DNA from: a virus
Taxonomy: Duplodnaviria; Caudoviricetes
Virus record (IMG/VR): IMGVR_UViG_3300033407_000075
Location: 1-35,485 of that record
Direction: 5' to 3' (one strand)
DNA: 35,485 nucleotides
Position 1 is the first letter of the stretch, and every line of letters begins with the position of its first letter. The notes beneath the pieces are model-generated. The model was not told where the DNA came from, did not search any database, and saw only the letters and a program-made list of their open reading frames with translations. Made by a program: the position numbers and the translations under genes. This document shows positions 8,276 to 33,021 of this stretch, in pieces.

Positions 8276-9924
8276 TGGCAACCCGCGAAACCGAACCCGC
8301 GACCCCGCTGGAGCGTCTGATCCAGAGCCTGCGGTCGATCCTCGGCAACGAGTATTTCGGCAACGAGACATCGGTCAACCCGCAGTTGGCCACGCTGAAC
8401 CTCATCAAGATTCGCGCGCTCGGCGATTACACGCCCCAGCAGCAGGACGCGCTCGAATCCCTGTCCCGCAACGCGGGGCTGGACGTCGAGTTCTCGACCC
8501 TGTTCAAGAAGCCGTACTCGGACGTGCAGGCGCCGGGCATCGAAGACGCCTCGTTCCCTTCACTGGGGATGCGCTACAACGAGGCCCTCGACGTGATCCT
8601 CCAAGCGGACAGCCCGAGGGCCAGCGAGTTCAACTTCTACGACGACAAGAGTGCCGACATCCTGTCGCAGCAGAAGGCCCCCGCGCAGGGTGGCGACCCG
8701 ACCTCAATCGAAACTGTAGGTCCGTCGGGCACGGGCGGCGGCGGAACTACAGGTGGAGGTGGCGGTGGGGGAGGGTTCCCCGGCTCGTCCGACCTTCCTG
8801 CGGCAGGCACCGCACGTCAGGTCCCAGGTGGCTACGAGGTCTGGCGCGTCGATGGGCGTGACATCTACCTCGCCTACAAGGTGCCCGGTACCGACGTGCC
8901 GCTCGTGTGGAAGATCGAGAACCCCGACCGACTCAATGCCATCTTCGGAGGCGCCCCGCCCCCCGCGGACCAGGAGATCAGCTCGGCTGAGTTCAAGAGC
9001 CGCTCCCCGTGGCTCGGTGGGCTGTCGGCCGAGTTGCAGAACACCTCCGAGGAACCCTTCGTCCAGTTCATGTCGGACTTCAACGAGGCCGCCAAGCTTC
9101 GCCCGTGGCTGCGCGACCCGTCGATGCTTGCGGTCATGGCGGGCTCTTACCTCGAAGGGCGACCCCCGACGCAGGATGAGTTGAGTCAGACCGATTGGTG
9201 GAACGACCACACCGCCGACGAGCGCGCGTGGATGGAACGCTCCGTGACGCTCGGGCGTGACGAGATGGAACGGCTGCGCGACGACGCCTCGCGCGCCGTC
9301 GCCGAGTCGCTACGCCAGGCTGGGGTCAGCAACGCCTCGGACGACCTCGTCCGGTTCTTGGCTGAGCAGCGCCTGACCGGCAAGTGGTCGCAGACCTACA
9401 CGGCCGAGCAGATCCGCAAGTTGTCTGACCCCTTCGCGGCCGGTGAACTCGACACTGAGTTGACCAAGATCCTGAGTGGGTCCGAACTCGACACGACCCG
9501 CAAGGGCGAGGAGGAAGTGCGCCAGTTGATGACTCGCTGGCTCGGCCCCGAGATGGGCCGGTTCTCCGAGAAGAACGTCAAGGAGTGGGCGGGCAAGGTG
9601 CGCAACGACCCCGACGCGCAGACCGAACTCGTCGAGATGCTGCGCTCGCAGCGGCTCGCACTGCTGCCCAAGTACGACAACCCGAACCTGACCTACGAGG
9701 ACATCATCCAGCCGGTTCGGAACCTGGCCGCGAACGTGTGGGGCCAGCCCGTCGCCGACGAATCCCTGCTCGTGGACCTCGCCAACACGGGGGACTACAC
9801 GGTGATGGCGCAGCGACTGAGGCAGCAGGGGCTCAACACGGGCGTTCGGAAGGTCGTGCAGGATTCACTATCCGGGCTGGGCGGAACATCGCTCGGTGAG
9901 CAGGTCATAAGGAGCGCCGTCTGA
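8272..9924 (+). CDS. Probable internal virion protein
   Basis: 550 aa, ATGA overlap, Gly-rich linker between two domains. Confidence 0.6.
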   Translation: MMATRETEPATPLERLIQSLRSILGNEYFGNETSVNPQLATLNLIKIRALGDYTPQQQDALESLSRNAGLDVEFSTLFKKPYSDVQAPGIEDASFPSLGMRYNEALDVILQADSPRASEFNFYDDKSADILSQQKAPAQGGDPTSIETVGPSGTGGGGTTGGGGGGGGFPGSSDLPAAGTARQVPGGYEVWRVDGRDIYLAYKVPGTDVPLVWKIENPDRLNAIFGGAPPPADQEISSAEFKSRSPWLGGLSAELQNTSEEPFVQFMSDFNEAAKLRPWLRDPSMLAVMAGSYLEGRPPTQDELSQTDWWNDHTADERAWMERSVTLGRDEMERLRDDASRAVAESLRQAGVSNASDDLVRFLAEQRLTGKWSQTYTAEQIRKLSDPFAAGELDTELTKILSGSELDTTRKGEEEVRQLMTRWLGPEMGRFSEKNVKEWAGKVRNDPDAQTELVEMLRSQRLALLPKYDNPNLTYEDIIQPVRNLAANVWGQPVADESLLVDLANTGDYTVMAQRLRQQGLNTGVRKVVQDSLSGLGGTSLGEQVIRSAV

Positions 9925-11264
9925 TGAGCACATCATGGATGTACGGAAGCCCCTCGCAGGTGGAGGGATACACCTGGGACTCGGGCTCACAGTCCTACGT
10001 GCCGACGGGTCAGTTCTACGACACGGGCGCTGGGGGTGGCACCCCCGGTCCGTCGTCCGCTGGCGACACCGTCACGACGTCGGATGGCGTTGACTACGCC
10101 GCTGAGTCTCAGGCGATGTTCCCGTGGCTTACCGGGCAACTGCTGTCCACCTACGCCGACCTGTGGGCCGAGTCCGGCTCCGCAACGGCGGCGCTGGCCA
10201 AGCTCCGCGACACGTCACCCTACAAGTCCGTCTTCAAGGGCATCCGACGCGAGGACGGCACCCTGCGCATGGACGAGAACGCCTACATGTCGCAGATGTA
10301 CGGGTTCCGCGAGATCATGTCCGAGTTCGAGGTGGCAACCGGAGGCTCGGAGTTCGACCTGTCGCGCCTGATCGAGTTGGAGGTCGACGCCCGCGAGTTC
10401 GCATCCGTCATCGCCGAGGCCGTCACGAGGTTCCGTGAGCCCGGCGCGGCCGAGGACAACGGGCTCGTCTCCCAGTTCGTGTCGGGCTTCATGCAGTCCG
10501 GCTCACTGTCGGCTGCGCTGGAGCAGGTCCGTCAGACCTCCGAGTACGAGCAGGTGTTCGCCGGCAACCGCCGTGACGACGGCACGATCAGGATGGACGA
10601 GAACGCCTACTTCTCCTACAAGCGCGGGTGGGAGCGGATCTTCCTGTCTCGCGGGCTGAACCCCGAGCCCTTCGAGGCGCAAGGCCGTCTCGCCGAGGCG
10701 GTGCGCAACGAGGTGTCCATTCAGGAGTTGGAGGGCCGCGTGCAGGCCGTCGAGACGAACGTGCTCGGCAACACCGCGTCCGTGCGGCAGTTCTTCGTGG
10801 GCGCCTACGGCCAGGAGGGTGCGGCCTTCCTCCAGTCGGCGCAGGACGAGGGGTTCGGCCGCTCGACTGCTCTGGCGATGGCGCTCGACCCGACCGTCGG
10901 CAACGAGCTTCTGTCCCGCAGGATCACCGCGGCACAGATCGGTGGCGAGGCTGCCGTGCAGGGCTTCGCTCGGTCGGTGCAGCGCGCCGAGGAGTTGGCT
11001 CGCGCAGGTGTCTCACAGGCGCAGGCTCGCAACCTCTACTCGCAGGCTGGGCTCCAGTTGGGCGGTCTGTCGGCGGCGACCCGTAGGTTCCGTCGCGGTG
11101 ACACGAACCTGGCTGACTTCGAGTCGGCGTTCGCGCTCGGCGAGGCCGGTCAGCAGCAGAGGATCACCCGAGCGTTGCAGGACGAGGGCTCGTCCTTCTC
11201 GTCCACCCGTGACGTGATGCGCTCAGGGGACGGGTTCGGTCTGGCTGGACTCAGGCAGCAGTAG
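9924..11264 (+). CDS. Probable internal virion protein with internal duplication
   Basis: 446 aa, AAGGAG RBS, TGATG overlap, two copies of VFxGxRRxDGTxRMDENAY. Confidence 0.6.
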   Translation: MSTSWMYGSPSQVEGYTWDSGSQSYVPTGQFYDTGAGGGTPGPSSAGDTVTTSDGVDYAAESQAMFPWLTGQLLSTYADLWAESGSATAALAKLRDTSPYKSVFKGIRREDGTLRMDENAYMSQMYGFREIMSEFEVATGGSEFDLSRLIELEVDAREFASVIAEAVTRFREPGAAEDNGLVSQFVSGFMQSGSLSAALEQVRQTSEYEQVFAGNRRDDGTIRMDENAYFSYKRGWERIFLSRGLNPEPFEAQGRLAEAVRNEVSIQELEGRVQAVETNVLGNTASVRQFFVGAYGQEGAAFLQSAQDEGFGRSTALAMALDPTVGNELLSRRITAAQIGGEAAVQGFARSVQRAEELARAGVSQAQARNLYSQAGLQLGGLSAATRRFRRGDTNLADFESAFALGEAGQQQRITRALQDEGSSFSSTRDVMRSGDGFGLAGLRQQ

Positions 11265-11267
11265 CGG

Positions 11268-11352
11268 CGGAGGGCGGAGGAGTCGAACCCCTAGGCGGTG
11301 AACCTCACCCGTTTTCGAGACGGGCTGCCAGCCAACCCGGCAGTCACCCTCC
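11268..11352 (-). tRNA. tRNA-Ser(CGA), 8/4-type cloverleaf, no encoded CCA
   Basis: Minus strand: GGAGGGTG AC TGCCG GGTTGGC TGGCA G CCCGT CTCGAAA ACGGG TGAGGTTCACCGCCTA GGGG TTCGACT CCTC CGCCCTCC G. Long variable arm and G discriminator. Confidence 0.9.
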
Positions 11353-11353
11353 G

Positions 11354-11426
11354 CTGCTCGGGCAGGGGTCGAACCTGCAACCTTCCGGTTAACAGCCGGA
11401 CGCTCCGCCAGTTGAGCTACCGAGCA
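11354..11426 (-). tRNA. tRNA-Asn(GTT), no encoded CCA
   Basis: Canonical cloverleaf: TGCTCGG/CCGAGCA acceptor, GCTC/GAGC D stem, TCCGG CTGTTAA CCGGA anticodon arm, GCAGG TTCGACC CCTGC T arm. Confidence 0.95.
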
Positions 11427-11427
11427 G

Positions 11428-11502
11428 TAGCAGGGGAGGGAGTCGAACCCTCACTCGCGCGGATTATGAGCCCGCTCCAGCACCACTACTGGTTGCCCTG
11501 CG
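11428..11502 (-). tRNA. tRNA-Met(CAT), initiator-like, atypical
   Basis: CGCAGGG/CCCTGCT acceptor with a 1:72 mismatch and A discriminator, GCGGG CTCATAA TCCGC anticodon arm, GAGGG TTCGACT CCCTC T arm. Confidence 0.85.
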
Positions 11503-11572
11503 ATGGGTGCCACCGTTGAGAAGCGCCACGGTGGCCACAGCGCGAGCCCGCGACGCGCGCGCAGGCGCGCCC

Positions 11573-11601
11573 AGTGTAACTACCGCACGAGTGCTTGACA
11601 A
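11573..11601 (-). promoter_or_regulatory. Sigma70/SigA-type promoter for the tRNA cluster
   Basis: Minus strand TTGTCA (11601-11596), 17-nt spacer, TACACT (11578-11573), about 70 nt upstream of tRNA-Met. Confidence 0.7.
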
Positions 11602-11623
11602 GTGCTGAGCGGTCAGGTATAAA
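11595..11623 (+). promoter_or_regulatory. Sigma70/SigA-type promoter for the scaffold-capsid operon
   Basis: TTGACA (11595-11600), 17-nt spacer, TATAAA (11618-11623), in an otherwise GC-rich sequence. Confidence 0.8.
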
Positions 11624-11628
11624 TACGG

Positions 11629-11905
11629 GTGACGGTCAACGTAGTTGGCTCCGACTGCCGTCACGGCGAACGCTCACGCCGAGAGCCTACGAACGAGCAA
11701 CACCCCACGCCGGGTCTGCCCCCCGGCTGGGCGTAAACGGTGGGCACGCAAAGCAATAACGGCTCGGCCTCGATCCCGCGAGGCAGTTGTTGCCGATGCC
11801 GTGGCCACTTCCCTCTTTCTGGTCAGAACCCTTCCTGCCTCGCCGTCACACGGCGATCCCCCGCAATGCCGTGTCGGACACGAAGCGGGCGCAGGAGGAA
11901 ACGCG
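11629..11905 (+). ncRNA. Candidate structured 5' leader or ncRNA upstream of the scaffold gene
   Basis: Helices GTGACGG/CCGTCAC, GCCGGG/CCCGGC, GCAATAAC/GTTGTTGC, GCCTCG/CGAGGC, ACACGGC/GCCGTGT and CTTCCTGC/GCAGGAGG, the last covering the SD. Confidence 0.55.
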
Positions 11906-12409
11906 ATGAGCGACCAAGAGGTTCAGGTGCAGGATCTACTCGGCAAGGTGAGCGACGAGGCGCTGCGTAAGCAGTTCGCCGATGCGTTCAACTCACTGTC
12001 GGGTTCAACGCTGCGCAAGCAGCTCGACGAAGTGCAGGTTGAGAACAAGACCCTGAAGTCGGAGAAGCGACAGAGGGTCTACCGAGACGCTGGCATCCCA
12101 GATGCTGCGTTCGACGTGCTCGACAAGGTGTACGACGGCGAGCTTGAGGTCGACAAGATCCGCGAGTACGCGACGGAGAAGGGCTTTGCCCTCGGAGAAC
12201 CCGGCAAGCGGGAACCCGAGGCGACACCCGACCCGGCAGCGGCACGGACGGCTGGCGAGCAGCGCTTTACGCAGCTCGCCCGGGGAACCATCCCACCGCG
12301 CGATGCCTCCACTGATGACCAAATCGCGGCAGCCGAGAAGGATGGTGACTGGCCGACGTTCAACCGTCTCCAGGCCCAGAAGCTCGAAGCCGTACGTCGA
12401 GCCTCCTAA
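11906..12409 (+). CDS. Capsid scaffolding protein
   Basis: AGGAGG RBS then ATG 11906 (ORF-track start 11645 rejected). 167 aa, charged coiled coil with a C-terminal helix-turn-helix-like tail, directly before the capsid gene. Confidence 0.75.
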   Translation: MSDQEVQVQDLLGKVSDEALRKQFADAFNSLSGSTLRKQLDEVQVENKTLKSEKRQRVYRDAGIPDAAFDVLDKVYDGELEVDKIREYATEKGFALGEPGKREPEATPDPAAARTAGEQRFTQLARGTIPPRDASTDDQIAAAEKDGDWPTFNRLQAQKLEAVRRAS

Positions 12410-12422
12410 GGAGTGACCTAGC

Positions 12423-13634
12423 ATGGCCACCGTTTCCGCACTGGGCACCAACTACAACCTCCCGAACTATCACGGTCGGGTCCACTACCTCACCCCTTCG
12501 GACACGCCGTTCACTACGGCGCTGATGGGTACCTCTGGTCTGGAAGTCGAAACCGCTCGTACCTTCGAGTGGACGACCGCAGACCTGCGTGCCGCTGCGC
12601 AGAACACGGTCGTTGACGGCGATTCTGCCGGTACTCCCGAGAACCGCGACCGCAGCAACGTGTTCAACGTCCTTCAGACCCACCGCGAAGACGTCGGTGT
12701 GTCCTACGAGCGTGCGGCTCAGTTCGGCCAGTTCGACGGGCGCAACATCGACGCCGGTCCGAACATCGTGGACGAGGCCGCGTGGCAGATCGACCAGATG
12801 TGGAAGCAGATCAAGCGAGACATCGAGTACTCGCTGATCAACGGCGCCTACGTGCTGCCGGGCGACAACAACTCGGCCGCGCAGACCCGAGGCATCTTGG
12901 CCGCGATCACCACGAACGCGCTGGACTCGTCCGACGCGGACGCCAACGGCATCGGCGTGGCGACCTCGGCTGACTCGGATGACACGCTCGACCTGGACGC
13001 CGTTCACGGGTTGTCCGTCGGTGACGACTTCTACTTCTCGGACCTCACCGGGGGTAGCGGCGTCGATGAGGACACCCGCTACTACGTCATCGAGGTCGTG
13101 GACACCGACAGTCTGAAGTTCTCGGCGACCAAGGGCGGCGCTGCGGTGGACTTCGGGTCCGACATCACCGACGGGGTTTTCGTCCCCTACGCCGAGCCGA
13201 CGATCCAGTCGGTTGAGGCGCTCATGCAGTCCGCCTTCGACAATGGTGGCCTGAGCGAGTCGGAGATGGGCCTACTCGTCGTCAACTCCGGTCTGAAGCG
13301 GTGGTTGACCAAGGTCTTCGTGCACGACACGGGCACCAACGTCCGCTCCCGCAACGTGGGCGGCGCGAACGTGCAGGTCATCGAGACGTCCTTCGGTGAA
13401 CTCGGGATCATGCTCAACCGCTACGTCCCGCAGGGCACCCTGGCTGCCGTCTCGCTCGACCAGTGCAAGGCGCACGTCCGCGAGATCCCCGGCAAGGGCG
13501 TCATGTTCGCCGAGCCGCTTGGTAAGGATGGTGCGTCCGACAAGACGCAGCTCTACACCTCGGTCGGTCTGGAGTACGGCAACGAGGCGGCCCACGCCAA
13601 GGACACCGGCTTCACCGCGAACTCTCCCGCCTGA
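12423..13634 (+). CDS. Major capsid protein (SU10/DUF5309-like, HK97 fold) with inserted domain
   Basis: AAGGAG RBS. Motifs DTPF, FEW..ADL, NVLQTHREDVGVS, QIKRDIEYSLING, TRGI and EPLGKDGASDK fit this family. Confidence 0.85.
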   Translation: MATVSALGTNYNLPNYHGRVHYLTPSDTPFTTALMGTSGLEVETARTFEWTTADLRAAAQNTVVDGDSAGTPENRDRSNVFNVLQTHREDVGVSYERAAQFGQFDGRNIDAGPNIVDEAAWQIDQMWKQIKRDIEYSLINGAYVLPGDNNSAAQTRGILAAITTNALDSSDADANGIGVATSADSDDTLDLDAVHGLSVGDDFYFSDLTGGSGVDEDTRYYVIEVVDTDSLKFSATKGGAAVDFGSDITDGVFVPYAEPTIQSVEALMQSAFDNGGLSESEMGLLVVNSGLKRWLTKVFVHDTGTNVRSRNVGGANVQVIETSFGELGIMLNRYVPQGTLAAVSLDQCKAHVREIPGKGVMFAEPLGKDGASDKTQLYTSVGLEYGNEAAHAKDTGFTANSPA

Positions 13635-13645
13635 GTCATCGTCTA

Positions 13646-13676
13646 GCCGGGGCGGCCAGTCGTAGGTCGCCCCGGC
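13646..13676 (+). terminator. Strong hairpin after the capsid gene (terminator or stabiliser, no U-tract)
   Basis: GCCGGGGCGGCC-AGTCGTA-GGTCGCCCCGGC, a 12-bp stem 12 nt after the stop. Confidence 0.6.
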
Positions 13677-13703
13677 AGGACCACATCCCCCCAGGACGAG
13701 GAC

Positions 13704-14030
13704 ATGGTGAGCAGGCCAGCGGTACCGCGGGTGCGGGATGTCCGCAGGTTCACCGTGGATTCTGTGACCATCACGGGGGACGCCAACCATGCGAGCGCCA
13801 AGCGGTTCGCGGGCTGGTCTGTGAGGGAGTCGGCCACGATCGCGGGCGCGGCGCGCATCAACTTCCGCCTCGGTTCTGTGTCCGGTCAGATTCTCGCCGT
13901 ACTGGAACTTCAAGCAGACCGCTCGGACACGATGTTCTTCCCGTGCGAGTTCCAAACGCCAGGGGGCGTCTACGTGGAGGTCGCCTCGGGGACTGTGTCC
14001 GGGGTTCTACTGAATAGAGGTGATTTGTAG
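13704..14030 (+). CDS. Small structural protein (possible decoration protein)
   Basis: 108 aa, beta-rich, GAGGA RBS, directly after the capsid gene. Confidence 0.55.
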   Translation: MVSRPAVPRVRDVRRFTVDSVTITGDANHASAKRFAGWSVRESATIAGAARINFRLGSVSGQILAVLELQADRSDTMFFPCEFQTPGGVYVEVASGTVSGVLLNRGDL

Positions 14031-15119
14031 ATGGGACTTTTCGACGCGAGTAGGTTGGGTGGCGGTTCGTCCGCCAACCCCGTGACAGTGACGCTGGAGT
14101 CTTCCGACGGATCGGTGCTGCGGTACGAGTTCACCGCGAGCGGCTCCGACGTCTCGATCCAGTTCAAGGACGAGTCGGGCAACATTGGCTCAGCCATTTC
14201 GGTCGCCGCTGGCGCGACGGCCAATGGCCCTGCCTCCGATATTTCGGGGACGGGCAAGATCGAGATGGAGGTCACCTTCGATGCGACCGGCTTCCGCAGC
14301 TCCGAGTATCTGGAGTGCGAAGTCGAGACGGTCACCACGCGCGAGGTTGACCGTGCTCCGTGGGCTCAGTCGCTTCCCGGCGCTGACGGCGACCTGATCG
14401 CCTCTGACGGAGCGGGTGGGGTCAAGACCGTCGGTAGTGACACGTACCTCACGACGGACGACGCCCTCCTTGGCTACTCCCCCCGGACCTGCCTGTATCT
14501 GGATGGCACGTCCGGTAACTACACGTCCACCCCCGACGCGGGCTCGCTGGATATCACCGGCGACATCGACCTGCGGTTCAGAGGGGAACTGGACTGGGCT
14601 CCGGCCGCTATCCGCCAGTTCGCAAACAAGTCGGACGTGGGCTCGCAGCGGTCATGGGGCTGGCAGTTGCAGACCTCCGGGCTGCTGCTGCTCCGCTGGT
14701 CTAGCGACGGTGCAGGAACCGGCGAAATCGGTGTCCAGTCCACAGTGGCGGTCCCCGACGACGGGGCGCTGCGTTGGGTCCGTGTCACCCTGGACGTGGA
14801 CAACGGCGCATCGGGATATGACGTGAAGTTCTATACGTCCGACGACGGCACGACATGGTCCCAGCTTGGGGCGACGGTGACCGGCGGGTCGACAACGAAC
14901 GTGTTCGCCGGTACGGCCCCGGTGGAGGTCGGCCGTCGAGGCAACAACACGCAGTACATGGTCGGTGCCGTCCACAGGTTCGAAATGTACGACGGGATCG
15001 GCGGGACACTGGTCGCCGCATTCGATCCTTCTGCGCCGGTCCACCCCCGGTTCCGTGACTCGGCAGGCCGAGTCTGGTCCTACACCGGGTCGGCGTTCTC
15101 GTGGCAGCAGGCGGCGTGA
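14031..15119 (+). CDS. Fibre/receptor-binding protein with C-terminal LamG/concanavalin-like domain
   Basis: LYLDGTSGNY.STPD..SLDITGD, WVRVT.D, VKFY and VEVG motifs. N-terminal ~135 aa paralogous to the next gene. Confidence 0.65.
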   Translation: MGLFDASRLGGGSSANPVTVTLESSDGSVLRYEFTASGSDVSIQFKDESGNIGSAISVAAGATANGPASDISGTGKIEMEVTFDATGFRSSEYLECEVETVTTREVDRAPWAQSLPGADGDLIASDGAGGVKTVGSDTYLTTDDALLGYSPRTCLYLDGTSGNYTSTPDAGSLDITGDIDLRFRGELDWAPAAIRQFANKSDVGSQRSWGWQLQTSGLLLLRWSSDGAGTGEIGVQSTVAVPDDGALRWVRVTLDVDNGASGYDVKFYTSDDGTTWSQLGATVTGGSTTNVFAGTAPVEVGRRGNNTQYMVGAVHRFEMYDGIGGTLVAAFDPSAPVHPRFRDSAGRVWSYTGSAFSWQQAA

Positions 15120-15129
15120 TGGGGTTGAA

Positions 15130-17232
15130 GTGGCGAGGTTTCTGAATCGCAGGTTTGGTGGGGGCTCATCGCGGAACCCCGTCACGGTGGCTCTGGAGAA
15201 GGGTGACGGCACCGTCATCCGTTGTGAGTTCACTGCCCACGGTGAGGATGTAACCGTCCGGTTTACCGACGACGCTGGCGTCGTCGGGTCAGCTATCGCC
15301 ATCGCCGAGGGCGAAACGGTCACGGGGCCGGGCTCAGAGATCATGGGCAAGGGCTCGCTCGGCATGACCGCCACCTTCGCCACGTCCGGGCTTAGGTCGT
15401 CCTACCTCGAAGTGGATGTCCAGTCTGTCCCCGCTGACGTGGACTTCGTGTCCCAGGTGCCCGCCTGGCTGTCGGCGGATCTGGACGACGTGTTCGCCTC
15501 CGACGGTGATGGTGGCGTCAAGGTCCGCGACGGTGCTGGGTTCGCCATTCTAGACGAGGCCGAGACGGTCACGGGTCAGTGGAGGTTTCCTACTCTCGAC
15601 GTGGACAGACTCCGGGTGAAGTCCGGGCCACACATAGACGCCACACACCGTGATTTTGGGGCGGTTGGTGACGGCGTTACGGACGACACCGCCGCCATCC
15701 AGTCGGCCCTTGACGCCGCCGCCGCTGCGGGCGGCGGCGTGGTTTTACTCCCAGCGGGGACTTATTCGGTTACGAGCCTTACGGTTCTAGATAAGACCAC
15801 CCTACGGGGTGTAGGCTTCACATACGGGGCATCTAGCGGTGGCACGCAAGTTGTTGGCTCTGACCCGTCCCTCAATGTCGTGGAGTTGGGTCAGGTGGGG
15901 GGGTACCGTTCGGGTATCCGAATATGCGACATGCGCATCTCGGGTGGCCTGAACAACATCGCCAACATTGAGGCGGCCAGCCACGTCGAGTTGGAGCGGC
16001 TGGAGTTGTCAGGTGCGGCCAATGCCGCCATCTACGTCACCGGATGGGCCGAGGAATGGTATGTCAGCCACGTTCAGGCATACGGACCTACGGGTGGGTA
16101 CGCCTGGCAGGCGGTCAACGTGGGGGATTCCGTTGGCGGGCTAAACTACATCGACAAATCCACCATTAGGGACTGCATTTTCGCCGGGGGAACGAACGCG
16201 GTTCGCTGGGAGTTGACCGTCATAAACAGCGTCGTGTTCCAAAACTGCGTCTTCAACTCCACGACAAGCCACGGGTTCCACATGGGGGGAGGTGCCCGCG
16301 CCCTCTCGTTTATAGGTTGCTCGACCGAGGGCGTGGGGCAGGGGGGTAAGAATGATCGTACGACAGGAACTATCACCTCTGGAACCAACTCACTCACTGT
16401 GGCGTCTGCGGCCGGGTATCAGGTGGGCGACCAGATCACCGTCGGTGGTGCGGGGTCCTTGGGTCAGGATCTGTATGCAGCGGTGGACGCCATTGCGGGC
16501 ACAACTTTTACGCTAGACACGAACGCTTCGACCACTGTCAACTCCCAGCCGGTAACCAACGCCACGTCGGACTGCTGGCACTTTTCCTCATCCCCGTTCG
16601 CCCCGGCCGAGGTTTCGTTTGTCGGATGCTTCCTTTTCGGGGAGGGAAACAACGGCAACCAACGGTACTCAGTGAACGCAAACTCTGGGACGAACTTCCT
16701 TTTCTTTGGGTGCCATGTGAGTAGCAGCATCCCCATCTATGATCCGCTCAGTAAACACTCCTATATGGGCGGTGATGCTAGTGCGGTTAGGCAGCAGGTT
16801 TCTATTGCCGGGAACAACCATACGGGCCATGTATTCAATGGAGCCAAGAGAAACATCATCGGCTCCGCGCCCGGTGGCGACCTGCTTCTCTACCTGCGCG
16901 ACTCAAACGACGCGGCTACTGGGACACTAGGTCGGCTGGAGGTTCGCAAGAACGACCCGAACCGAACGAGACTTTTCCGCGTGGACACGAGCGACAACAG
17001 CGTGCGGCAGGACCGCTCGGACGGATCGTTGGTGGTCGAAGGCGCTCTCGACCACAACGGAGGCACCCTGGGGTTTTTCGGCGTCACCCCGGCTGCGCAA
17101 TCCTCGCCGTACACGGCCAGCAATGTCATTACGGATCGCTCATTCGACGCTAACGCGATGACACTCGATGAGTTGGCAGATGTTCTGGGAACCCTGATCG
17201 CAGACCTACAGGCCCTCGGTCTTCTGGGCTGA
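15130..17232 (+). CDS. Tailspike/fibre with pectate-lyase-like beta-helix (putative depolymerase)
   Basis: GTG 15130 chosen by alignment with the paralog. FGAVGDGVTDDTAAIQSALD...GGGVVLLPAGTY is the Pectate_lyase_3 N-cap, followed by beta-helix repeats and a helical C-terminus LADVLGTLIADLQALGLL. Confidence 0.8.
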   Translation: MARFLNRRFGGGSSRNPVTVALEKGDGTVIRCEFTAHGEDVTVRFTDDAGVVGSAIAIAEGETVTGPGSEIMGKGSLGMTATFATSGLRSSYLEVDVQSVPADVDFVSQVPAWLSADLDDVFASDGDGGVKVRDGAGFAILDEAETVTGQWRFPTLDVDRLRVKSGPHIDATHRDFGAVGDGVTDDTAAIQSALDAAAAAGGGVVLLPAGTYSVTSLTVLDKTTLRGVGFTYGASSGGTQVVGSDPSLNVVELGQVGGYRSGIRICDMRISGGLNNIANIEAASHVELERLELSGAANAAIYVTGWAEEWYVSHVQAYGPTGGYAWQAVNVGDSVGGLNYIDKSTIRDCIFAGGTNAVRWELTVINSVVFQNCVFNSTTSHGFHMGGGARALSFIGCSTEGVGQGGKNDRTTGTITSGTNSLTVASAAGYQVGDQITVGGAGSLGQDLYAAVDAIAGTTFTLDTNASTTVNSQPVTNATSDCWHFSSSPFAPAEVSFVGCFLFGEGNNGNQRYSVNANSGTNFLFFGCHVSSSIPIYDPLSKHSYMGGDASAVRQQVSIAGNNHTGHVFNGAKRNIIGSAPGGDLLLYLRDSNDAATGTLGRLEVRKNDPNRTRLFRVDTSDNSVRQDRSDGSLVVEGALDHNGGTLGFFGVTPAAQSSPYTASNVITDRSFDANAMTLDELADVLGTLIADLQALGLLG

Positions 17233-17268
17233 AGGGCGTTCGATGGGGGTTCATGTCGTGTGGGGCAC

Positions 17269-17325
17269 AAAAGAGGCCCCGCCGAAGGAAGGACCAAAGG
17301 GTTAGTCGGAATCCACGACGGGGCC
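17269..17325 (-). ncRNA. Candidate ~57-nt hairpin small RNA ending in a U-tract
   Basis: Minus strand GGCCCCGTCG...CGGCGGGGCC TCTTTT (10-bp stem whose G-U pair works only on the minus strand), with inner stem GACTAA/TTGGTC. Starts 6 nt after a TATAAT. Confidence 0.6.
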
Positions 17326-17330
17326 GCCCG

Positions 17331-17359
17331 ATTATAACCGAACGGGGCAGTGCGGTCAA
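17331..17359 (-). promoter_or_regulatory. Near-consensus antisense promoter
   Basis: Minus strand TTGACC (17359-17354), 17-nt spacer, TATAAT (17336-17331). Confidence 0.8.
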
Positions 17360-17431
17360 CGCGCGGACCAGACGTGATCTGCTGGGCATCTGCCTGTAGA
17401 CTGCTGAGTGGGTGTACCCGGAGGTTCTTCT

Positions 17432-18325
17432 GTGTCGACAGTCGCCGAGCTGGCCGACCGTGTCTATCGAGACTACCTGCACGCCCCGGAGGACCAGCCG
17501 ATTGCCATAACGCTCGGCGCGGACGTCAATAGCACCGACACGGCATGGACCTACGACGACGCCACGCTCGCGCCCGACGAGGAAGACCTGCTCGCCCCCG
17601 GTGTGCTGATCGAGTGCGGAACCGAGCAATGCCGGATCAGCGACGTGGACCACGACGCCAACACACTGACGGTGCTGCGCGGCGTCAACGGCACCTCGAA
17701 GACCACCCACCTCGAAGACGACGACATTCTCGTGGCCCCGGTGTTCTCCCGCAAGTCGGTCGTGGACGCGGTGATGGACGGCGTTGTCACCCTGTACCCG
17801 TCCCTGTGGCGCGTGGCCACGGAGACGATCACCGTCGCCGAGTCCTACGTGGAGGTCCCCGAGGAGGCCATCACCCTTGAGTCGTTCCTGTGGACCGACG
17901 GGACCAACTACTACCCAGGCAACCTGCCGACCCTGCTGTCCAACTTCCCGCCGTCGTCCACGAACAAGGCCGTCGTCCACTTCGGCGCCCCGACCGACCG
18001 AACGGGCTACCTGACCTACCGGGCCAAGTTCACCCGTCCGTCCACCGAGGCGACCGAGCTGTTCGACCTCGGCGTGCAGTCCGAGTGGGAGCGGATCGTT
18101 GTCGTGGGGGCTGCCGCACAGGTCGTCTCCGGTCGCCCGCCCGACGCGCTGACCGCCGAATACATCACCGAGCAACTGGAACGCGAGGCGCTGCCACCGG
18201 GCTCAGCCAACCGCATTCGCAACGGCTTGCTGAAACTGCGCTCGGTGTGGATCGACGAGGCCGCTCGCATCCTGCGTGCCGACCAGCACACGCCCGTCCA
18301 GTATCTGCCGACGAGGCGACAGTGA
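17432..18325 (+). CDS. Probable head-tail adaptor / tail tubular protein A-like
   Basis: GGAGG RBS then GTG 17432, 297 aa. Helix/beta/helix layout with LTVLRGVNGT...H module, located before the nozzle-like gene. Confidence 0.55.
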   Translation: MSTVAELADRVYRDYLHAPEDQPIAITLGADVNSTDTAWTYDDATLAPDEEDLLAPGVLIECGTEQCRISDVDHDANTLTVLRGVNGTSKTTHLEDDDILVAPVFSRKSVVDAVMDGVVTLYPSLWRVATETITVAESYVEVPEEAITLESFLWTDGTNYYPGNLPTLLSNFPPSSTNKAVVHFGAPTDRTGYLTYRAKFTRPSTEATELFDLGVQSEWERIVVVGAAAQVVSGRPPDALTAEYITEQLEREALPPGSANRIRNGLLKLRSVWIDEAARILRADQHTPVQYLPTRRQ

Positions 18326-20259
18326 GCCCCGCCCCGACCCTGACCACGGTCAGCAACCCGCGCAAGTGGGGCTTCGGGGTCGCGTTGGGGGACCGACTTT
18401 TCAGACTTGCTGTGGGGCCGGGCCGAACCATCCAGATCGACACGGCACCCGGCGAGGCTCCGCGCCTCAACACCGCGTCCTCTCCCGAGGAGATGGGCGA
18501 GACGGAGCCGGTGTTCGCGCGCTCGCGGTTCTCGGGCGGCGAGGGCTTGTTCCGTGCTCATGTCGAAGGCGCTGCCGCCGACCGCTTCTGGGACTCCAAG
18601 AACGTGTCGGTCGCGCCGGCCGAGCCCGGCGAGTTCCCCGAGGTCCGACTGCTGCACTCCACGGCATCCATCGAGACGTCTGCCGTCACGGGTCTGTATA
18701 CGGCCTACGACCGCACGGACGGCGCGCTCTACATGGTCGAAGGCGCGGTACTGCGCCGAACCGCCGACCCGACTGTGGCGTCCCCGACGTTCGCCGACGA
18801 TGACCCGACCGCCGTCGATGCAGCCACCGACGTCACCGACGTTGCGGTGCTCGGCGACGAGGTCTACGCAGCGACCGACCACGGCATCCACAAGAAGACC
18901 TCCGGCACCTGGGCGCACTGGGGCGACGAGCCCGCCTCCGCGGACTACGTGCGCATCTGGGCCGTCAAGGGCCGCATCGTCGCCTCCAACGGGGTGTCGC
19001 TCTACGAGGTGACGGCCTCGGGCGCTGCCCCTTCTGCACTGAAGACGCTCGCGCCGGGGGAGGGGTGGACCGACGTCGCGGACGGTGGCTCACACATTCT
19101 CGCGGGCGCATCCGATGGCTACGTGTACGCCTTCACTACCGAGTCGGGCTCGATGGCGCTCGACGCGCAGACCCTTTTCGAGACGGAGTCGGTCACTGCC
19201 ATTGCATCCACCCAAGGGGCCGTAGCGGTCGGCGTGTCTGCATCCAACGTTGGGCGCCTGTACGTCGGGGAGTTGGCCGACAACGGTCAGGTCAAGCCGA
19301 CCCGACTCATTCGCCAGTGGGGCGAATCGGGCACCGCCATCGACCAGGCCCCTCGCCGGATCATCGGAACCCGGGACTCCTTTGTCACGGCTGTCCCCGA
19401 CGGGACTGACACATTCCTGTGGCGCTACAACCTCGTGACGGCCGGGCTGTCCCGCGACCTGACCATCGACGGATCGTCGGGCGTGGTGCGCGGCATCGAA
19501 GTCATCGACGGTCGGTTGTTCGCCTCGGTGGACAGTGCCGGGCTGTTCCGCGAGACGTCCACCTACCCGTCGTCCGGCTACCTGATCGGACCACTCGGGG
19601 ACTTCTTAGTGGCGTCGAAGAAGTCGTGGGTCGGGGGTCGCCTCGAAACCGGGGACGTGACCAACGGGCAGTACGTCGAGCTTTACTACACGACCGACCC
19701 CGACGCACTCAGCGACCCTGGCTCGTCCTCGTGGACGCGGGTGGTCAAGAAGATTTCAGGCTCTGGCGACCCCGGCGAGTATGCGCTGACCTCGGTCGTG
19801 TCACGGTCGCTGGCGGGGATGGTCAAGCTCGCGCCGTCGTCAGACTCGGCCTCCACGCCGACGGTGCGTTCCTTCTCGTTCCGGGCCTACCCGACCACCG
19901 GGGAGGAAGACAAGATCATCGTCCTTCCGGTGGACATCGGGGACCAGATCGAACGGCGCGGCCGTCACCGTGTCCGCCGTCGTGGGCGCGGCAACGACGA
20001 GTACGTGGCGCTGCGCGCGCTCGACGGACAGCCGTTGACCATGCAGTTGTTCCGCCCGGAGATCACGATCCGAGGTGCCGTCAAGAGCATCGCTACTCCA
20101 GTGCTGGGCCTGTCGCACCGCGGGTCGCCGACGCTTGTCGCGCAGGTGACAGTGATCGGTCGTGAGGTGTCGCAGTCGGGCGGCTCCACGTCTAGCTCGG
20201 GGCCCTTCTCCACCCTCAGAACGTTCAGTGAACTTCCGACCTTCTCAGAAGTGGGATAA
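18322..20259 (+). CDS. Probable tail nozzle / tubular protein B-like (beta-propeller)
   Basis: GTGA overlap, 645 aa, repeated beta-blade-like segments and an FSGGEG motif. Confidence 0.6.
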   Translation: MSPAPTLTTVSNPRKWGFGVALGDRLFRLAVGPGRTIQIDTAPGEAPRLNTASSPEEMGETEPVFARSRFSGGEGLFRAHVEGAAADRFWDSKNVSVAPAEPGEFPEVRLLHSTASIETSAVTGLYTAYDRTDGALYMVEGAVLRRTADPTVASPTFADDDPTAVDAATDVTDVAVLGDEVYAATDHGIHKKTSGTWAHWGDEPASADYVRIWAVKGRIVASNGVSLYEVTASGAAPSALKTLAPGEGWTDVADGGSHILAGASDGYVYAFTTESGSMALDAQTLFETESVTAIASTQGAVAVGVSASNVGRLYVGELADNGQVKPTRLIRQWGESGTAIDQAPRRIIGTRDSFVTAVPDGTDTFLWRYNLVTAGLSRDLTIDGSSGVVRGIEVIDGRLFASVDSAGLFRETSTYPSSGYLIGPLGDFLVASKKSWVGGRLETGDVTNGQYVELYYTTDPDALSDPGSSSWTRVVKKISGSGDPGEYALTSVVSRSLAGMVKLAPSSDSASTPTVRSFSFRAYPTTGEEDKIIVLPVDIGDQIERRGRHRVRRRGRGNDEYVALRALDGQPLTMQLFRPEITIRGAVKSIATPVLGLSHRGSPTLVAQVTVIGREVSQSGGSTSSSGPFSTLRTFSELPTFSEVG

Positions 20260-22868: not shown

Positions 22869-23093
22869 GTGGACCTGGCCGAGTTTCAACTGTCCGAGAA
22901 GCCCGGTGGTCGCTGCCGGTTCCCGCGACTCCTGACCGAGTTGGAGTCGGAGGACGCCGAGAAGCTCCTACAGGCGTTGCCCGCGCCCGACGTCCCACAT
23001 GTCGGCGTTCAGCGGTGGCTCAACGACCGCGGCATCGACATCAAATACAACGCTGTCCTGCGCCACCGCAACGGGCACTGCACTTGTGGCTGA
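22869..23093 (+). CDS. Small hypothetical protein (Cys/His C-terminus)
   Basis: 74 aa ending RHRNGHCTCG, overlapping the start of the phosphoesterase gene. Confidence 0.65.
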   Translation: MDLAEFQLSEKPGGRCRFPRLLTELESEDAEKLLQALPAPDVPHVGVQRWLNDRGIDIKYNAVLRHRNGHCTCG

Positions 23094-25308
23094 CCTGACG
23101 GAGTTCATGCAGTCCGGACCGAGTCGTAACGACCGCCACCCGAAGGGGTGGGCTCCCCGTGTAGACACCGAGACGGGTGTGGTGATCGTCCGCAGTGACG
23201 ACCCCGAGCCGCCCGGCGACTGGGACGAGATCATTCGTCAGTTCAAGTTGGACCCCGCCAAGTGGGAGGTTCTGTCGGACAGCGTCCACGTCCGCACCTG
23301 GGACATCAACGTCGGCGGGGGAGAGATCCAACGCTGCTACTACTACAAGACCGAGTTGCGACCCAGGCGCGCGAGCGCGACCGACGTAGACGAGATCATT
23401 TCGCGGGTGTCCAAGTGGCGCCCGCGCACTGTTACCACGGGTGTCGCCGAAGGAACCTACGTCGTGCCTGTTGGCGACCTCCAGTTGGGCAAGGCACTGA
23501 GCGACGACACGGAAATCCTCACAACGAGTGGGTGGAAGCGCCACGGAGACCTTCGTCCGGGTGACTACGTCTACGGGACCGACGGCAACCCGAAGCGTGT
23601 GCTCTCTGTTACTGGCTCCGCCCCGATGGAGTGCTTCCGAGTGGTCTTTGACAAAGGCGTCGAGATAGTCGCGTCTGGAAACCATCTATGGAGGGGCACG
23701 AGGCCCTACCGGATCGGCTCCAGAAGGGTGAAGGGCAAGCGCGTGGGTGGTCGCCCGGTCGACCGCGAACTGACATGGACGACCAGTGAGATTGCGAGCC
23801 TCAAGAGGCATGAGATCCGACCGGGGTACTTCACAACCGCCAGGCCCTTTCGGATCGACAACCCATCACCCATCGAACTCCCCGACGCCGACCTGCTGGT
23901 CGACCCGTACCTACTTGGCTTGTGGCTTGGGGACGGGAGCGCCCGAGCGGGATACATCACGAGCGGCTTCGAGGACGCCCCTCACTTGGACCACCTTGGC
24001 CACCGAATAGTTCCCAAGGGCCACGCCGCCACGATAAGGGTGCCAGGACTTACGGCCGACCTGCGTGCGCTCGGAGTTCTCGGCGACAAGCATGTCCCCG
24101 ACGAGTATCTGATGGCGTCACCGAAGCAGCGGATCGCGCTCCTTCAGGGACTCATGGACTCGGATGGATACTGTGGAGAGAGTGGTATTTGTGAGTTCTC
24201 GAACACCAACCAACAGTTGTCAGAGTCCGTTTATTGGATCGTCACGTCACTCGGCATGAAGGTGCGGTGGTCGTGGAAGTTCGGAACACTCCATGGCGAA
24301 GTGAAGTCTCCCGTCTTCCGAGTCCAGTTCACCCCACCGGAACACACCCCGGTCTTTCGCCTAGAGAGGAAGCTTGAGCGCCAGCGGCACGTACCACCCC
24401 AACACCAAATAACTCGCCGCTTCGTTCAGTATGTCGAGCCCGTTGGGACGCGCTCTGCTCAATGCATAACCCTTGAGGGGTCTATGTACCTGGCGGGTCG
24501 TGACCTCGTCCCGACGCACAACTCCGACGGGGGTGGATCACAAGGCATCGTGGACCGCTTCCTCGTAGAGATGGAGCGGGCCGCCCAACGTCTGCGCAAG
24601 CGCAACGGTCGCAAGGCTGCCGAACAAGTGTTCGTCCCCTGGATGGGCGATTGTATCGAGGGGCTGTGGTCGCAGAACAAGTCCCTGCGGATGCGGCTGG
24701 ACCTGACCGCCACCGAGCAGGTTCGCGTCTACCGCCACCTCATGCTCGCGCAGGTCAAGTTGTTCGCCCCGCTCACTGAGCGCCTCGTGGTCCCCGTCAT
24801 CCCCGGCAACCACGACGAGGCTGTCCGTGAGGGCGGGAAGATGGCGTCCTTCTGTGATGACTCGTGGGCCATCGAAGGCGCGTCGGCCGTGATGGCTGCC
24901 GTCAACGAGAACCCCGAGCTGCGCGAGAAGGTCGAGTTCGTGTTCCCCGGCCACGATCAACTCACGCTCACACTCGACGTGGACGGAACCTACGTCGGGC
25001 TGGCGCACGGCCATCAGTTCCCCGGAGGCGCCGACGGCTGGCGCAAGTGGTGGAACGACCAGGCGGGCGGCAGGACTCCGGTCGGGATGGCTGACGTGCT
25101 CCTGGCCGCACACCTGCATCACCTGAGAGTTCAGGACCACGGGGACGGCCGACTGTTCCTTCAGATCCCCGCACTCGACGGGGGCTCGACGTGGTTCAAG
25201 CACCGTCGCGGCGAAGCATCCCCGCCACGAGTGGTCACCTTCTTCACCAAGGACGGCCACGTGTGGGGTCTCGACCCGGTCACGACCAAACCAGAGGCAG
25301 TTGCATGA
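23086..25308 (+). CDS. Calcineurin-like metallophosphoesterase (Mre11-like), intein-containing
   Basis: Motifs GDLQLGK, MGDCIE, PGNHD, AHGH and AHLHH. GTG start at 23086. Confidence 0.85.
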   Translation: MADLTEFMQSGPSRNDRHPKGWAPRVDTETGVVIVRSDDPEPPGDWDEIIRQFKLDPAKWEVLSDSVHVRTWDINVGGGEIQRCYYYKTELRPRRASATDVDEIISRVSKWRPRTVTTGVAEGTYVVPVGDLQLGKALSDDTEILTTSGWKRHGDLRPGDYVYGTDGNPKRVLSVTGSAPMECFRVVFDKGVEIVASGNHLWRGTRPYRIGSRRVKGKRVGGRPVDRELTWTTSEIASLKRHEIRPGYFTTARPFRIDNPSPIELPDADLLVDPYLLGLWLGDGSARAGYITSGFEDAPHLDHLGHRIVPKGHAATIRVPGLTADLRALGVLGDKHVPDEYLMASPKQRIALLQGLMDSDGYCGESGICEFSNTNQQLSESVYWIVTSLGMKVRWSWKFGTLHGEVKSPVFRVQFTPPEHTPVFRLERKLERQRHVPPQHQITRRFVQYVEPVGTRSAQCITLEGSMYLAGRDLVPTHNSDGGGSQGIVDRFLVEMERAAQRLRKRNGRKAAEQVFVPWMGDCIEGLWSQNKSLRMRLDLTATEQVRVYRHLMLAQVKLFAPLTERLVVPVIPGNHDEAVREGGKMASFCDDSWAIEGASAVMAAVNENPELREKVEFVFPGHDQLTLTLDVDGTYVGLAHGHQFPGGADGWRKWWNDQAGGRTPVGMADVLLAAHLHHLRVQDHGDGRLFLQIPALDGGSTWFKHRRGEASPPRVVTFFTKDGHVWGLDPVTTKPEAVA
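23494..24522 (+). mobile_element. Class 3 intein (343 aa) with LAGLIDADG homing endonuclease
   Basis: Begins ALSDDTEILTTSGW and ends VPTHN before Ser+1. Block B ASGNHLW, block F AQCITL, LAGLIDADG motifs LLGLWLGDG and LLQGLMDSDG. Confidence 0.9.
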
Positions 25309-30919: not shown

Positions 30920-31146
30920 TAGGCGTAAAGTCGGCGTAAGCGGAAATCAGTCGTAATCGGACTGCCGTTATTCTGCCTGATAAGTGCCCGAATGTCAAGC
31001 GGAACCTCTAGACTAATCTGGCAATCCACTAGATGTTGTGGAGCAGAAGTCCGCATTCAAGTACGGCATGCGTACTTGAGACTGGGCGATTGGATGTATT
31101 TCACGGGGGTTTAGGGTGCCCATAGGCGTAAACCGTTCGTAATCGA
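30920..31146. other. Candidate attP region
   Basis: AT-richer intergenic region with inverted repeat TCAAGTAC-N7-GTACTTGA (31057-31079), flanked by direct repeats TAGGCGTAAA (30920, 31123) and TCGTAATCG (30951, 31137). Confidence 0.55.
30970..30998 (-). promoter_or_regulatory. Promoter for the RNA ligase operon
   Basis: Minus strand TTGACA (30998-30993), 17-nt spacer, CAGAAT (30975-30970). Confidence 0.65.
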
Positions 31147-31244: not shown

Positions 31245-31715
31245 TCACTCAGCCTTCCTGCCCGTGCGGATCTGATCTACGAAGACGTCGAAGTCCGCCG
31301 CGATCTGTGTGGCGACCTCGCCAAGCCGCTTGACCGCAACGTCCACCCGGTCGGCCACCGACACTTGAATGAGGTCGTTGGGTGGGTTGCCGAGGTGCGT
31401 GAGGTCAGTTCCGAGGCCGTACTCGTCTTCGATGTCCTCGTATTCCCAGACCGGAAAGGGGTAGGTGGGTAGATAGCGGATGGCTCCGTCCCGCGGGACT
31501 TGAGCAACGGCCACCACCATGTCGAAAGTCTGTGGCGCCGCACCATTCAAGGGAAACTCCTCCACCCGCAGTCGATCCCAGGAATAGCGCGCACTCTCAT
31601 TTCTGAGAGCGACGTGGTCTTTGGCCGCGCCCCCATCCGTGAACACAGCGACGATGTGGTAGTTGCTGTACTCGCCACTCGTCACGACGTAGGCCATCCG
31701 CCTGTTGACCATCAC
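31245..31715 (-). CDS. Hypothetical phage protein
   Basis: 156 aa, AGGAGG RBS, GTGA overlap with the integrase stop, YVVTSGEYSNY N-terminal motif. Confidence 0.65.
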   Translation of the reverse strand: MMVNRRMAYVVTSGEYSNYHIVAVFTDGGAAKDHVALRNESARYSWDRLRVEEFPLNGAAPQTFDMVVAVAQVPRDGAIRYLPTYPFPVWEYEDIEDEYGLGTDLTHLGNPPNDLIQVSVADRVDVAVKRLGEVATQIAADFDVFVDQIRTGRKAE

Positions 31716-32869
31716 TCAGCCCTCCTGATCGGTGTCACGTTCGGGCCAGGTCCGCGCTTGGCCTGCTGCCACATCTGATCCATCGCCTCACCCAAGTCCT
31801 GCATGTCGTCGGCGAACAGGTGCGCGTAGGTCTTCATCGTCACGGCAGGTGAAGCGTGACCGAGATAGGCGGCCACCTGCACGGGCGAGAAGCCTTGGCG
31901 GATCAGCCACGAGGCGCAGGTGTGGCGCAGCTCGTGGGGCACGAGGTCACGACCGATGCCAGCATCCTTCAGCGCAGGCCTGAAGTGCTCGCGGTTCCAC
32001 GCCGGCCAGATCCTCGACTGCCCTCGCTTGCCGTCGCACATGAACAGGAACTCGCCACCGCGCGCGACACACCGCTCAAGCACTTCCTCGACGGCAGGGA
32101 ACACCGGAATCCAGCGCCACTTGTCGGCCTTCTCGTCCCAGATGTTCAGCTTGCCGTTGATCCGGTCCCAGTTCTCCTCGACCAGTACGGCCAGGTCGCC
32201 GATGCGACAGCCGATCAGCGCCAGCCCGAGCACGATGTCGGCCGACCACCCCGAGCGCAACTCCCACTGCGGGTGATCCTCGCCCATGGCGTGCGACCGA
32301 CCGTCGGGACCGACGTAGGAGCACGACTTGCCCTTCGACGCCTCGACCAGAGCCTGCAACTCGTGCGGCTCAAGCACGGTCATCTGCTTGCGCCTGTGTG
32401 GCGGGGCCTTGACGAGCTTGGCCGGGTTGGCTGGGATGTACCCGTAGCGTTGCTGATCGGTCAGGAACGACGAGAGGATCTGGAGCCCCTTCAGGGCCGT
32501 GTTGGTCGTCCGCTCCTTGACCAGTTGGTTGCGCCACGCCTCGATCTGCTCGACGCCGAGGTGCTCCATCGTCAGGTTGCCGAGGTACGGCTTGATGTGC
32601 TTGCGCACGAATAGTGAGTAGAGCGCGTGCGATGAGGGCGCGAAGTTGGGGTCCTCGGCCCTGATGTCGAGCCACTCGTCGAGCCGGTCGCCCACACGCT
32701 CGCGCAGTCGGTCGGGTGGAATGAACACACCACGGTCGAAGTCGGCGGTGACCTGTCGCTCCCACGCCACGGCGTCCCGGCGCAGGTCGAAGGTGCGCGA
32801 GTGTCGCTCGCCTCCCAACATCTTCTCGACCTTGTATTTACCGTTGGGCAACTTCTGCGGCTTCGCCAT
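31712..32869 (-). CDS. int: Tyrosine integrase
   Basis: GGGAGG RBS then ATG 32869. N-terminal arm-binding region (SRTFDLRRDA), catalytic GCRIG, HELRH, LGH and TMKTY. Confidence 0.92.
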   Translation of the reverse strand: MAKPQKLPNGKYKVEKMLGGERHSRTFDLRRDAVAWERQVTADFDRGVFIPPDRLRERVGDRLDEWLDIRAEDPNFAPSSHALYSLFVRKHIKPYLGNLTMEHLGVEQIEAWRNQLVKERTTNTALKGLQILSSFLTDQQRYGYIPANPAKLVKAPPHRRKQMTVLEPHELQALVEASKGKSCSYVGPDGRSHAMGEDHPQWELRSGWSADIVLGLALIGCRIGDLAVLVEENWDRINGKLNIWDEKADKWRWIPVFPAVEEVLERCVARGGEFLFMCDGKRGQSRIWPAWNREHFRPALKDAGIGRDLVPHELRHTCASWLIRQGFSPVQVAAYLGHASPAVTMKTYAHLFADDMQDLGEAMDQMWQQAKRGPGPNVTPIRRAE

Positions 32870-33021
32870 CTCGGTCCTCCCTTGCCTTCTCGAATGTAAC
32901 TGTGGCCCGTGATCTATGCGTGTGTAGGTCGCCGTGCTTCCGCCGGGCCCCCAGGTGCACACGACCTTGCACGGCTGGCCTTTCCGGTCGGGCTGGTATT
33001 TCCGCCACCACCACACGTGCG

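Follow-up and report, generated by a model that had tools for sequence, protein, structure and literature searches.

We propose that a promoter, hairpin and U-tract on the minus strand of a soil phage probably form a discrete phage small RNA gene, an uncatalogued addition to the class of stand-alone phage small RNAs. The best explanation we can offer for its role, and a tentative one, is that the RNA would act in trans against ribosome-binding sites, chiefly damping translation of the phage integrase.

The phage and its promoter–hairpin unit

The window, by which we mean the whole 35,485-base virus record analysed here, belongs to an uncultured phage, probably comes from a soil metagenome and is 93% complete. 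The matching soil-metagenome contig is 44.8 kb long, which places about 9 kb of genome outside the window, and better targets of the RNA may therefore be unseen; a second soil run yielded scattered pieces only, none covering the promoter–hairpin–U-tract unit. The phage is probably a temperate actinobacterial podophage and distant kin of the Beephvirinae, since its gene order and the homologues of its tail tube link it, at a distance, with Streptomyces phages of that group. Its capsid protein is 72% identical in a Nitriliruptoraceae MAG and an integrase homologue is present in an Acidimicrobiia MAG; these two homologues point to an actinobacterial host, the exact host being only hinted at. The genome has a GC content of 65%, with portal, SU10-type capsid, tailspike, tail tube and endolysin encoded on the plus strand and an early block of RNA ligase, RusA-like resolvase, integrase, methylase and Cas4-like nuclease on the minus strand.

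Three further features of the layout were seen. Tandem 24-nt repeats at 35225–35485, encoding an SASVxAxG repeat protein with a C-terminal DUF7666, reach the contig end and may have caused the assembly break. An exonuclease-like gene at 22999–25308 is split by an insert of ~350 aa, probably an intein, to which matches to terminase, primase and similar families are confined. Lastly, neighbouring small early genes on the minus strand (26129, 26341 and 26559; 31245 and 31712) carry near-identical leader or junction sequences of 18–21 nt, hinting at cassette-like duplication behind them.

The promoter consists of a −35 hexamer TTGACC (17354–17359, minus strand) and a −10 hexamer TATAAT (17331–17336, minus strand) 17 nt apart, scoring 11/12 as a match to consensus from sequence alone. 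The sequence-only reading had called it the best promoter in the window; the score stands, but among three sites with a match of at least 10/12 it ties for the top with TTGACA-17-TATAAA at +11595. A 51-nt rod hairpin (17275–17325, minus strand) follows, built of 10-bp, 3-bp and 6-bp helices, two pyrimidine internal loops and a CCCU apical loop. Because the stem begins 5 nt past the −10 box, either its first G or its second would be +1, in line with the earlier placing of the start at the hairpin base. The rod runs into the U-tract UCUUUUGU (17267–17274, minus strand; 6 U of 8), a predicted intrinsic terminator tail that a second, local hairpin at 17275–17296 (−9.4 kcal/mol) likewise abuts. Promoter spacing and U-tract together predict an RNA of ~57 nt (17269–17325, minus strand). 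The rod has 19 pairs, two of them G-U, and its 13 unpaired bases are all pyrimidines. Both G-U pairs can form on the minus strand only, as had been claimed; the 57-nt RNA folds at −30.7 kcal/mol (z −5.1), with none of 200 shuffles equally stable, against a weaker −20.8 (z −2.0) for the plus strand of 17265–17325. The hairpin and its U-rich tail are thus as first described, and a stand-alone small RNA of ~57 nt fits the promoter, hairpin and terminator anatomy while being predicted from sequence.

The promoter had been said to face no credible ORF, and we agree. Minus-strand frames at 16890–17297 (GC3 0.69) and 17150–18175 (GC3 0.63) cross the unit and resemble antisense shadows cast by genes of the plus strand; GC3 in the real genes is mostly 0.8–0.9, and 0.71 in the tailspike. 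The plus-strand frames overlapping the RNA are of 20 and 48 codons only. The former (17243–17305) was weighed as a possible type I toxin but rejected, as it has no hydrophobic helix. Also rejected was a 22-bp palindrome over the −10 box as an operator, since it occurs in a single copy, 40 of 100 shuffles match its pattern and 74 22-mers in the window are equal or better.

A stock terminator scan omitted the hairpin because it allows only loops of 3–8 nt. We scanned for the whole unit instead (−10 box, 4–8 nt, closing stem of at least 7 bp, U-tract), with criteria fixed after the element had been seen. One unit was found in the window, whereas 26 of 200 dinucleotide shuffles held any such unit and none of the 200 held one with a promoter of at least 10/12; no unit was found in G002 (a complete relative with an integrase), G003–G005, L018 or the Dennebes stretch. 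The joint promoter–hairpin–U-tract arrangement is non-random. It is accordingly very unlikely, in our estimate, that the promoter is silent and the hairpin a mere terminator, insulator or chance fold. The hairpin alone is unexceptional, with at least 22 other 57-nt windows folding more stably, stronger folds are common in a genome of this GC content, and a consensus match is not function. Against a silent promoter stand the shuffles, the fold and U-tract, both better on the minus strand, on which there is no upstream gene in need of a terminator, and the window's other near-consensus sites, which precede real units (scaffold leader, tRNA cluster and RNA ligase).

Two of those sites lie back to back at 11573–11623 with one common palindromic −35 region. 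The site at +11595 drives the scaffold/capsid leader, and TTGTCA-17-TACACT at −11601 faces a minus-strand tRNA-Met/Asn/Ser cluster (11266–11502) that is absent from related loci. These three tRNAs are the only ones called by ARAGORN and Rfam tRNA/tmRNA models, the unit not being one. A minus-strand RNA gene fits the layout of this phage, since the tRNAs already use a minus-strand host-type promoter in the structural region. The scaffold gene is preceded by a leader of ~280 nt (11625–11905) with equivalents in L002, L003, L014 and L016, each with a promoter-like site ahead, a conserved 7-bp stem and a long pyrimidine-rich loop. Over the five sequences 31 of 35 stem cells are paired, two of the pairs switching from A-U to G-C, and this leader is arguably a conserved candidate cis-regulatory RNA that is better supported than the 57-nt RNA.

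The tailspike module and relatives of the RNA

The unit occupies, on the opposite strand, the 199-nt spacer from the tailspike stop at 17232 to the tail-tube start at 17432. Upstream lies a tailspike-like ORF with a pectate-lyase-like domain (14965–17232, plus strand; true start probably near 15120), and downstream a tail-tube-like gene (17432–18325, plus strand) related to gp42 of Streptomyces phage Kumquat, which is annotated as tail tube. In four related loci (L002, L003, L014 and L019) the tube gene begins ~60–90 nt after the capsid gene and the tailspike module is absent; a fifth (L016) has a single unrelated frame between the two. Because related loci join capsid to tube in this way, 13635–17431, comprising three genes and the unit, is lineage-specific, and the unit closes this tailspike module of ~3.7 kb. 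Our searches retrieved no related locus with the module and no locus with a close integrase. Within the module, the three genes at 13704–17232 are inserted past the capsid terminator, and a 362-aa gene and the tailspike-like gene have an N-terminal domain in common (repeats at a spacing of 1096), which suggests a choice of two fibres on a shared anchor, possibly attached to the capsid.

This position raises the reading, in our view unlikely, that the unit acts as a cis-antisense element on the late polycistronic mRNA where tailspike and tail tube adjoin; pairing of the RNA or of leaky read-through would lead to cleavage, or the promoter to head-on interference. The outcome would be superinfection exclusion in lysogens or a step-down of tail genes, like that of BTP1 STnc6030 or lambda OOP. 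Positional complementarity is perfect, the promoter faces the tailspike 3′ end 37 nt past the U-tract, and the next 3.6 kb has just two U-rich minus-strand sites, both with weak folds (−9.5 and −1.9). The 57-nt form, however, misses both the tailspike ORF and the tube Shine-Dalgarno sequence (~100 nt away), STnc6030 is 786 nt long, and four related loci do without the unit. A closed rod with a 4-nt loop is, besides, a poor design for a cis-antisense RNA.

The sequence-only reading recognised no known family, and Rfam was likewise blank for the unit: suhB/MmgR (RF00519) scored 13.3 bits where gathering requires 41 (E 5.8, chance level), a weak likeness in the anti-SD-like stretch and the terminator end. 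Across the window, tRNA was the sole match at gathering score. An HDV-like ribozyme, a Y RNA and a CRISPR-repeat mimic, weighed by eye, were set aside, with no Rfam match.

No homologue of the promoter plus hairpin was found, related phages included. The exact stem-arm pattern had no match in viral contigs, and a 16-nt core pattern matched nine loci there, none with the hairpin; eight belong to one marine family in which the motif is coding (the end of a head-protein-like ORF), and one lies in an unrelated spacer. A metagenome scan gave one match (L017), a contig equal in length to the window and probably its source. BLAST returned short matches only in phages and plasmids (E 0.2–8), and matches at E ≤ 0.1 in 13 of 95 genomes of G001's order (about chance), none with the hairpin. 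A covariance model (R1) built from the single sequence matched 1/95 genomes and 1/151, both inside coding-like sequence by inspection, and none of four related virus records.

A looser pattern returned 14 loci, a few of which have the same design of −10 box, rod and U-tract, and their interiors are unrelated. The architecture is found in unrelated phage contigs, with a U-tract in L049/L054 and L052 and with weaker tails in L050 and L051; matches of R1 to L049, L052 and L054 cover the common stem only, the feature used to select them. Each of these units is itself a candidate small RNA, and L051 has an ORF on the opposite strand that adjoins the −10 box. The architecture recurs in phages, then, and the sequence of the 17269–17325 RNA is an orphan.

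Such a pattern could also mean an empty or orphaned cassette that arrived with the tailspike insertion, perhaps the antisense RNA or leader of a lost gene, maybe transcribed yet with no selected target. The same architecture around unrelated interiors, an SD-like GAAGGAAGGACC on the plus strand of the unit with no start codon behind it, and conservation found nowhere are all consistent with this. However, no part of the unit is degraded, be it promoter, spacing, the 19 pairs or U-tract, which argues against long decay, and the absent homologues may reflect sparse sampling because no related tailspike-module locus was retrieved; we consider an empty cassette unlikely.

Complementarity to the integrase leader

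The tyrosine integrase (31712–32869, minus strand, 385 aa) has all of the R, HxxRH, H and Y motifs. Its homologues, 363–387 aa long, cover 98–100% of the query and hence the 385-aa frame, which indicates that the ATG at 32869 is the real start. Close homologues (P0154–P0159) are 57–82% identical to it, and P0158 is encoded on a 45.6-kb contig. A putative attP-like region at 30920–31145 combines a 9-bp inverted repeat with three 23-nt direct repeats set around it, and no attB core was found in 41 genomes; given the integrase and these repeats, lysogeny is plausible. The integrase lies within the minus-strand early block with no promoter-like site between gene and window end, and is therefore probably carried on the early transcript, in which case it would need separate damping. 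In lambda, sib retroregulation does this job of uncoupling integrase.

The 3′ inner arm of the RNA (nt 28–41; 17285–17298, minus strand), which includes the anti-SD-like CUUCCUU (opening cost 3.8 kcal/mol), is complementary to the 14 nt directly before the integrase ATG (32870–32883, minus strand), a candidate target that includes the Shine-Dalgarno sequence. The predicted helix between nt 28–41 and positions −14 to −1 has 14 contiguous pairs, 11 Watson-Crick and 3 G-U. Tested against 41 hand-curated gene starts of the window, the inner segment (nt 11–42) made its best contiguous helix with the integrase leader (−20.6), the next best being −14.1. Conversely, among the 39 antisense partners that the integrase leader has over both strands of the window, the unit ranks first, and for the other 40 leaders it comes 16th at best, so that arm and leader are reciprocal best partners within the window. 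AAGGGAG occurs four times in the window, always on the minus strand and three times in leaders, those of integrase, Cas4-like nuclease and RNA ligase. It is present in 3 of 20 own minus-strand leaders, one of the three having defined the motif, against 3 of 568 foreign leaders (Fisher p 0.005).

We hypothesise that the host housekeeping polymerase would transcribe the ~57-nt RNA, terminating at the U-tract, and that the weak 3-bp middle helix would then open, allowing CUUCCUU to seed on the AAGGGAG Shine-Dalgarno sequence and zip to the start codon. The ribosome-binding site of the integrase mRNA would be covered in trans and its translation damped, with a weaker effect on Cas4-like nuclease and RNA ligase, whose leaders also contain AAGGGAG. 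The point of such control would be to free integrase expression from the early transcript carrying it. The full claim, that a 57-nt RNA from a tailspike module 15 kb away controls integration remotely by masking these three ribosome-binding sites without Hfq, is doubtful as it stands.

Controls temper the pairing, as both the inner segment and the heptamer were picked after the match had been seen. The same best-of-41 value was reached by 6 of 300 dinucleotide shuffles of the inner segment, an equally good one by 20 of 400 mononucleotide shuffles, and by 29 of 150 shuffles of the full RNA. Among 557 foreign leaders, called heuristically and including BirdsNest owing to an earlier match, two, of which BirdsNest supplied one, paired as well with the inner segment (best-of-41 chance 14%), and five did so with the full RNA (31%). 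Chance estimates across controls thus span 2–14% for the inner segment and 19–31% for the whole RNA. Opening would cost 10.3 kcal/mol for the half-buried arm of the RNA and 4.1 for the target, and the net gain is small (cofold −2.7; about −6 as helix minus opening costs). With longer target context integrase falls to rank 4, and by a gapped, accessibility-corrected score 50 of 568 foreign leaders lie at or below its value, own leaders as a set being no better than foreign ones (p 0.76). Early leaders are enriched against random windows (p 0.003), an enrichment lost in comparison with foreign leaders from phage (p 0.08) or host (p 0.56), and the BirdsNest gp103 leader pairs better than that of integrase (−23.8). 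The RNA arm is the mirror of a generic actinophage leader. A related observation concerns the minus strand of G002 (L057) at 8387–19006, where a recurrent tag with the core CGGATGA stands in several copies just before start codons; its longest form matches the integrase leader over 16 nt, and the tag appears to be a start-associated sequence of that relative.

The RNA might instead act on a partner outside the window, namely host mRNAs (a generic anti-SD RNA, 6C-like), genes in the missing ~9 kb, the leaders of another phage, or a protein for which the RNA is a decoy. Every unpaired base is a pyrimidine, host-type leaders average like the phage's own early leaders (−8.0 vs −7.7), and a closed, stable rod would suit protein binding. 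Even so, none of 207 predicted leaders of one candidate host-order genome reaches the integrase helix, the host is only hinted at, and no decoy-type RNA matches in Rfam at gathering score, making an outside partner distinctly unlikely. Of the modes of action first suggested for the RNA, base-pairing has gained a concrete if weak lead in the integrase leader, while protein decoy and anti-defence found no support. We regard the complementarity to the integrase leader as suggestive only, a lead and not a result.

Known phage RNAs and biological meaning

A close functional parallel to the proposed integrase control is the c4 RNA of phages P1/P7, described as 77 nt long and acting in trans (PMC12197685). 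Like it, the present RNA is a short phage RNA proposed to pair in trans near the ribosome-binding site of a lysogeny-related gene; unlike it, it has no Rfam C4 match, its candidate target is integrase, not c4's antirepressor, and its pairing is predicted (PMC12197685). Lambda OOP RNA (77 nt) and P22 sar (68/69 nt) are likewise described as short structured transcripts from their own promoter opposite a phage operon (PMC12197685, PMC5488031). Each of those RNAs overlaps, or base-pairs with, the gene that it regulates or the leader of that gene, whereas the unit overlaps intergenic late mRNA only: the RNA, confined to the spacer that follows the tailspike stop (17232) and precedes the tube start (17432), overlaps neither coding sequence nor a ribosome-binding site. 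STnc6030 of the temperate prophage BTP1 likewise has its promoter antisense at the tailspike locus, with a transcript of 786 nt over coding sequence where we predict a terminated intergenic hairpin of ~57 nt (PMC7067206). The 6C (B11) sRNA of Actinobacteria has similarly pyrimidine-only single-stranded parts, the likely actinobacterial host here would lack Hfq/ProQ, and 6C is a precedent of chaperone-free leader pairing in actinobacteria (PMC6486639). In contrast to 6C (RF01066), our RNA is phage-encoded, forms one rod with a 4-nt loop and no long C-rich loops, and has no Rfam 6C match.

In fold, too, c4 differs, being multi-looped where the 57-nt RNA is a single rod. To our knowledge, a target is known for few small RNAs of actinobacterial phages. 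The main text of a phage sRNA review mentions no integrase, mycobacterial or Streptomyces case, a count that leaves aside its supplementary table of 38 uncharacterised RNAs. A literature search for integrase-directed antisense RNAs, with most subscription papers outside its coverage, found no trans-acting case; in S. pyogenes, sRNAs are reported to adjoin integrase genes (PMC4829319).

What is new here is the complementarity of RNA nt 28–41 to the integrase leader, which is suggestive only. If the pairing is true, it would add an RNA layer to the lysis–lysogeny switch in a host group without Hfq; if it is not, the element would be another orphan promoter–hairpin unit of a type that recurs in phages.
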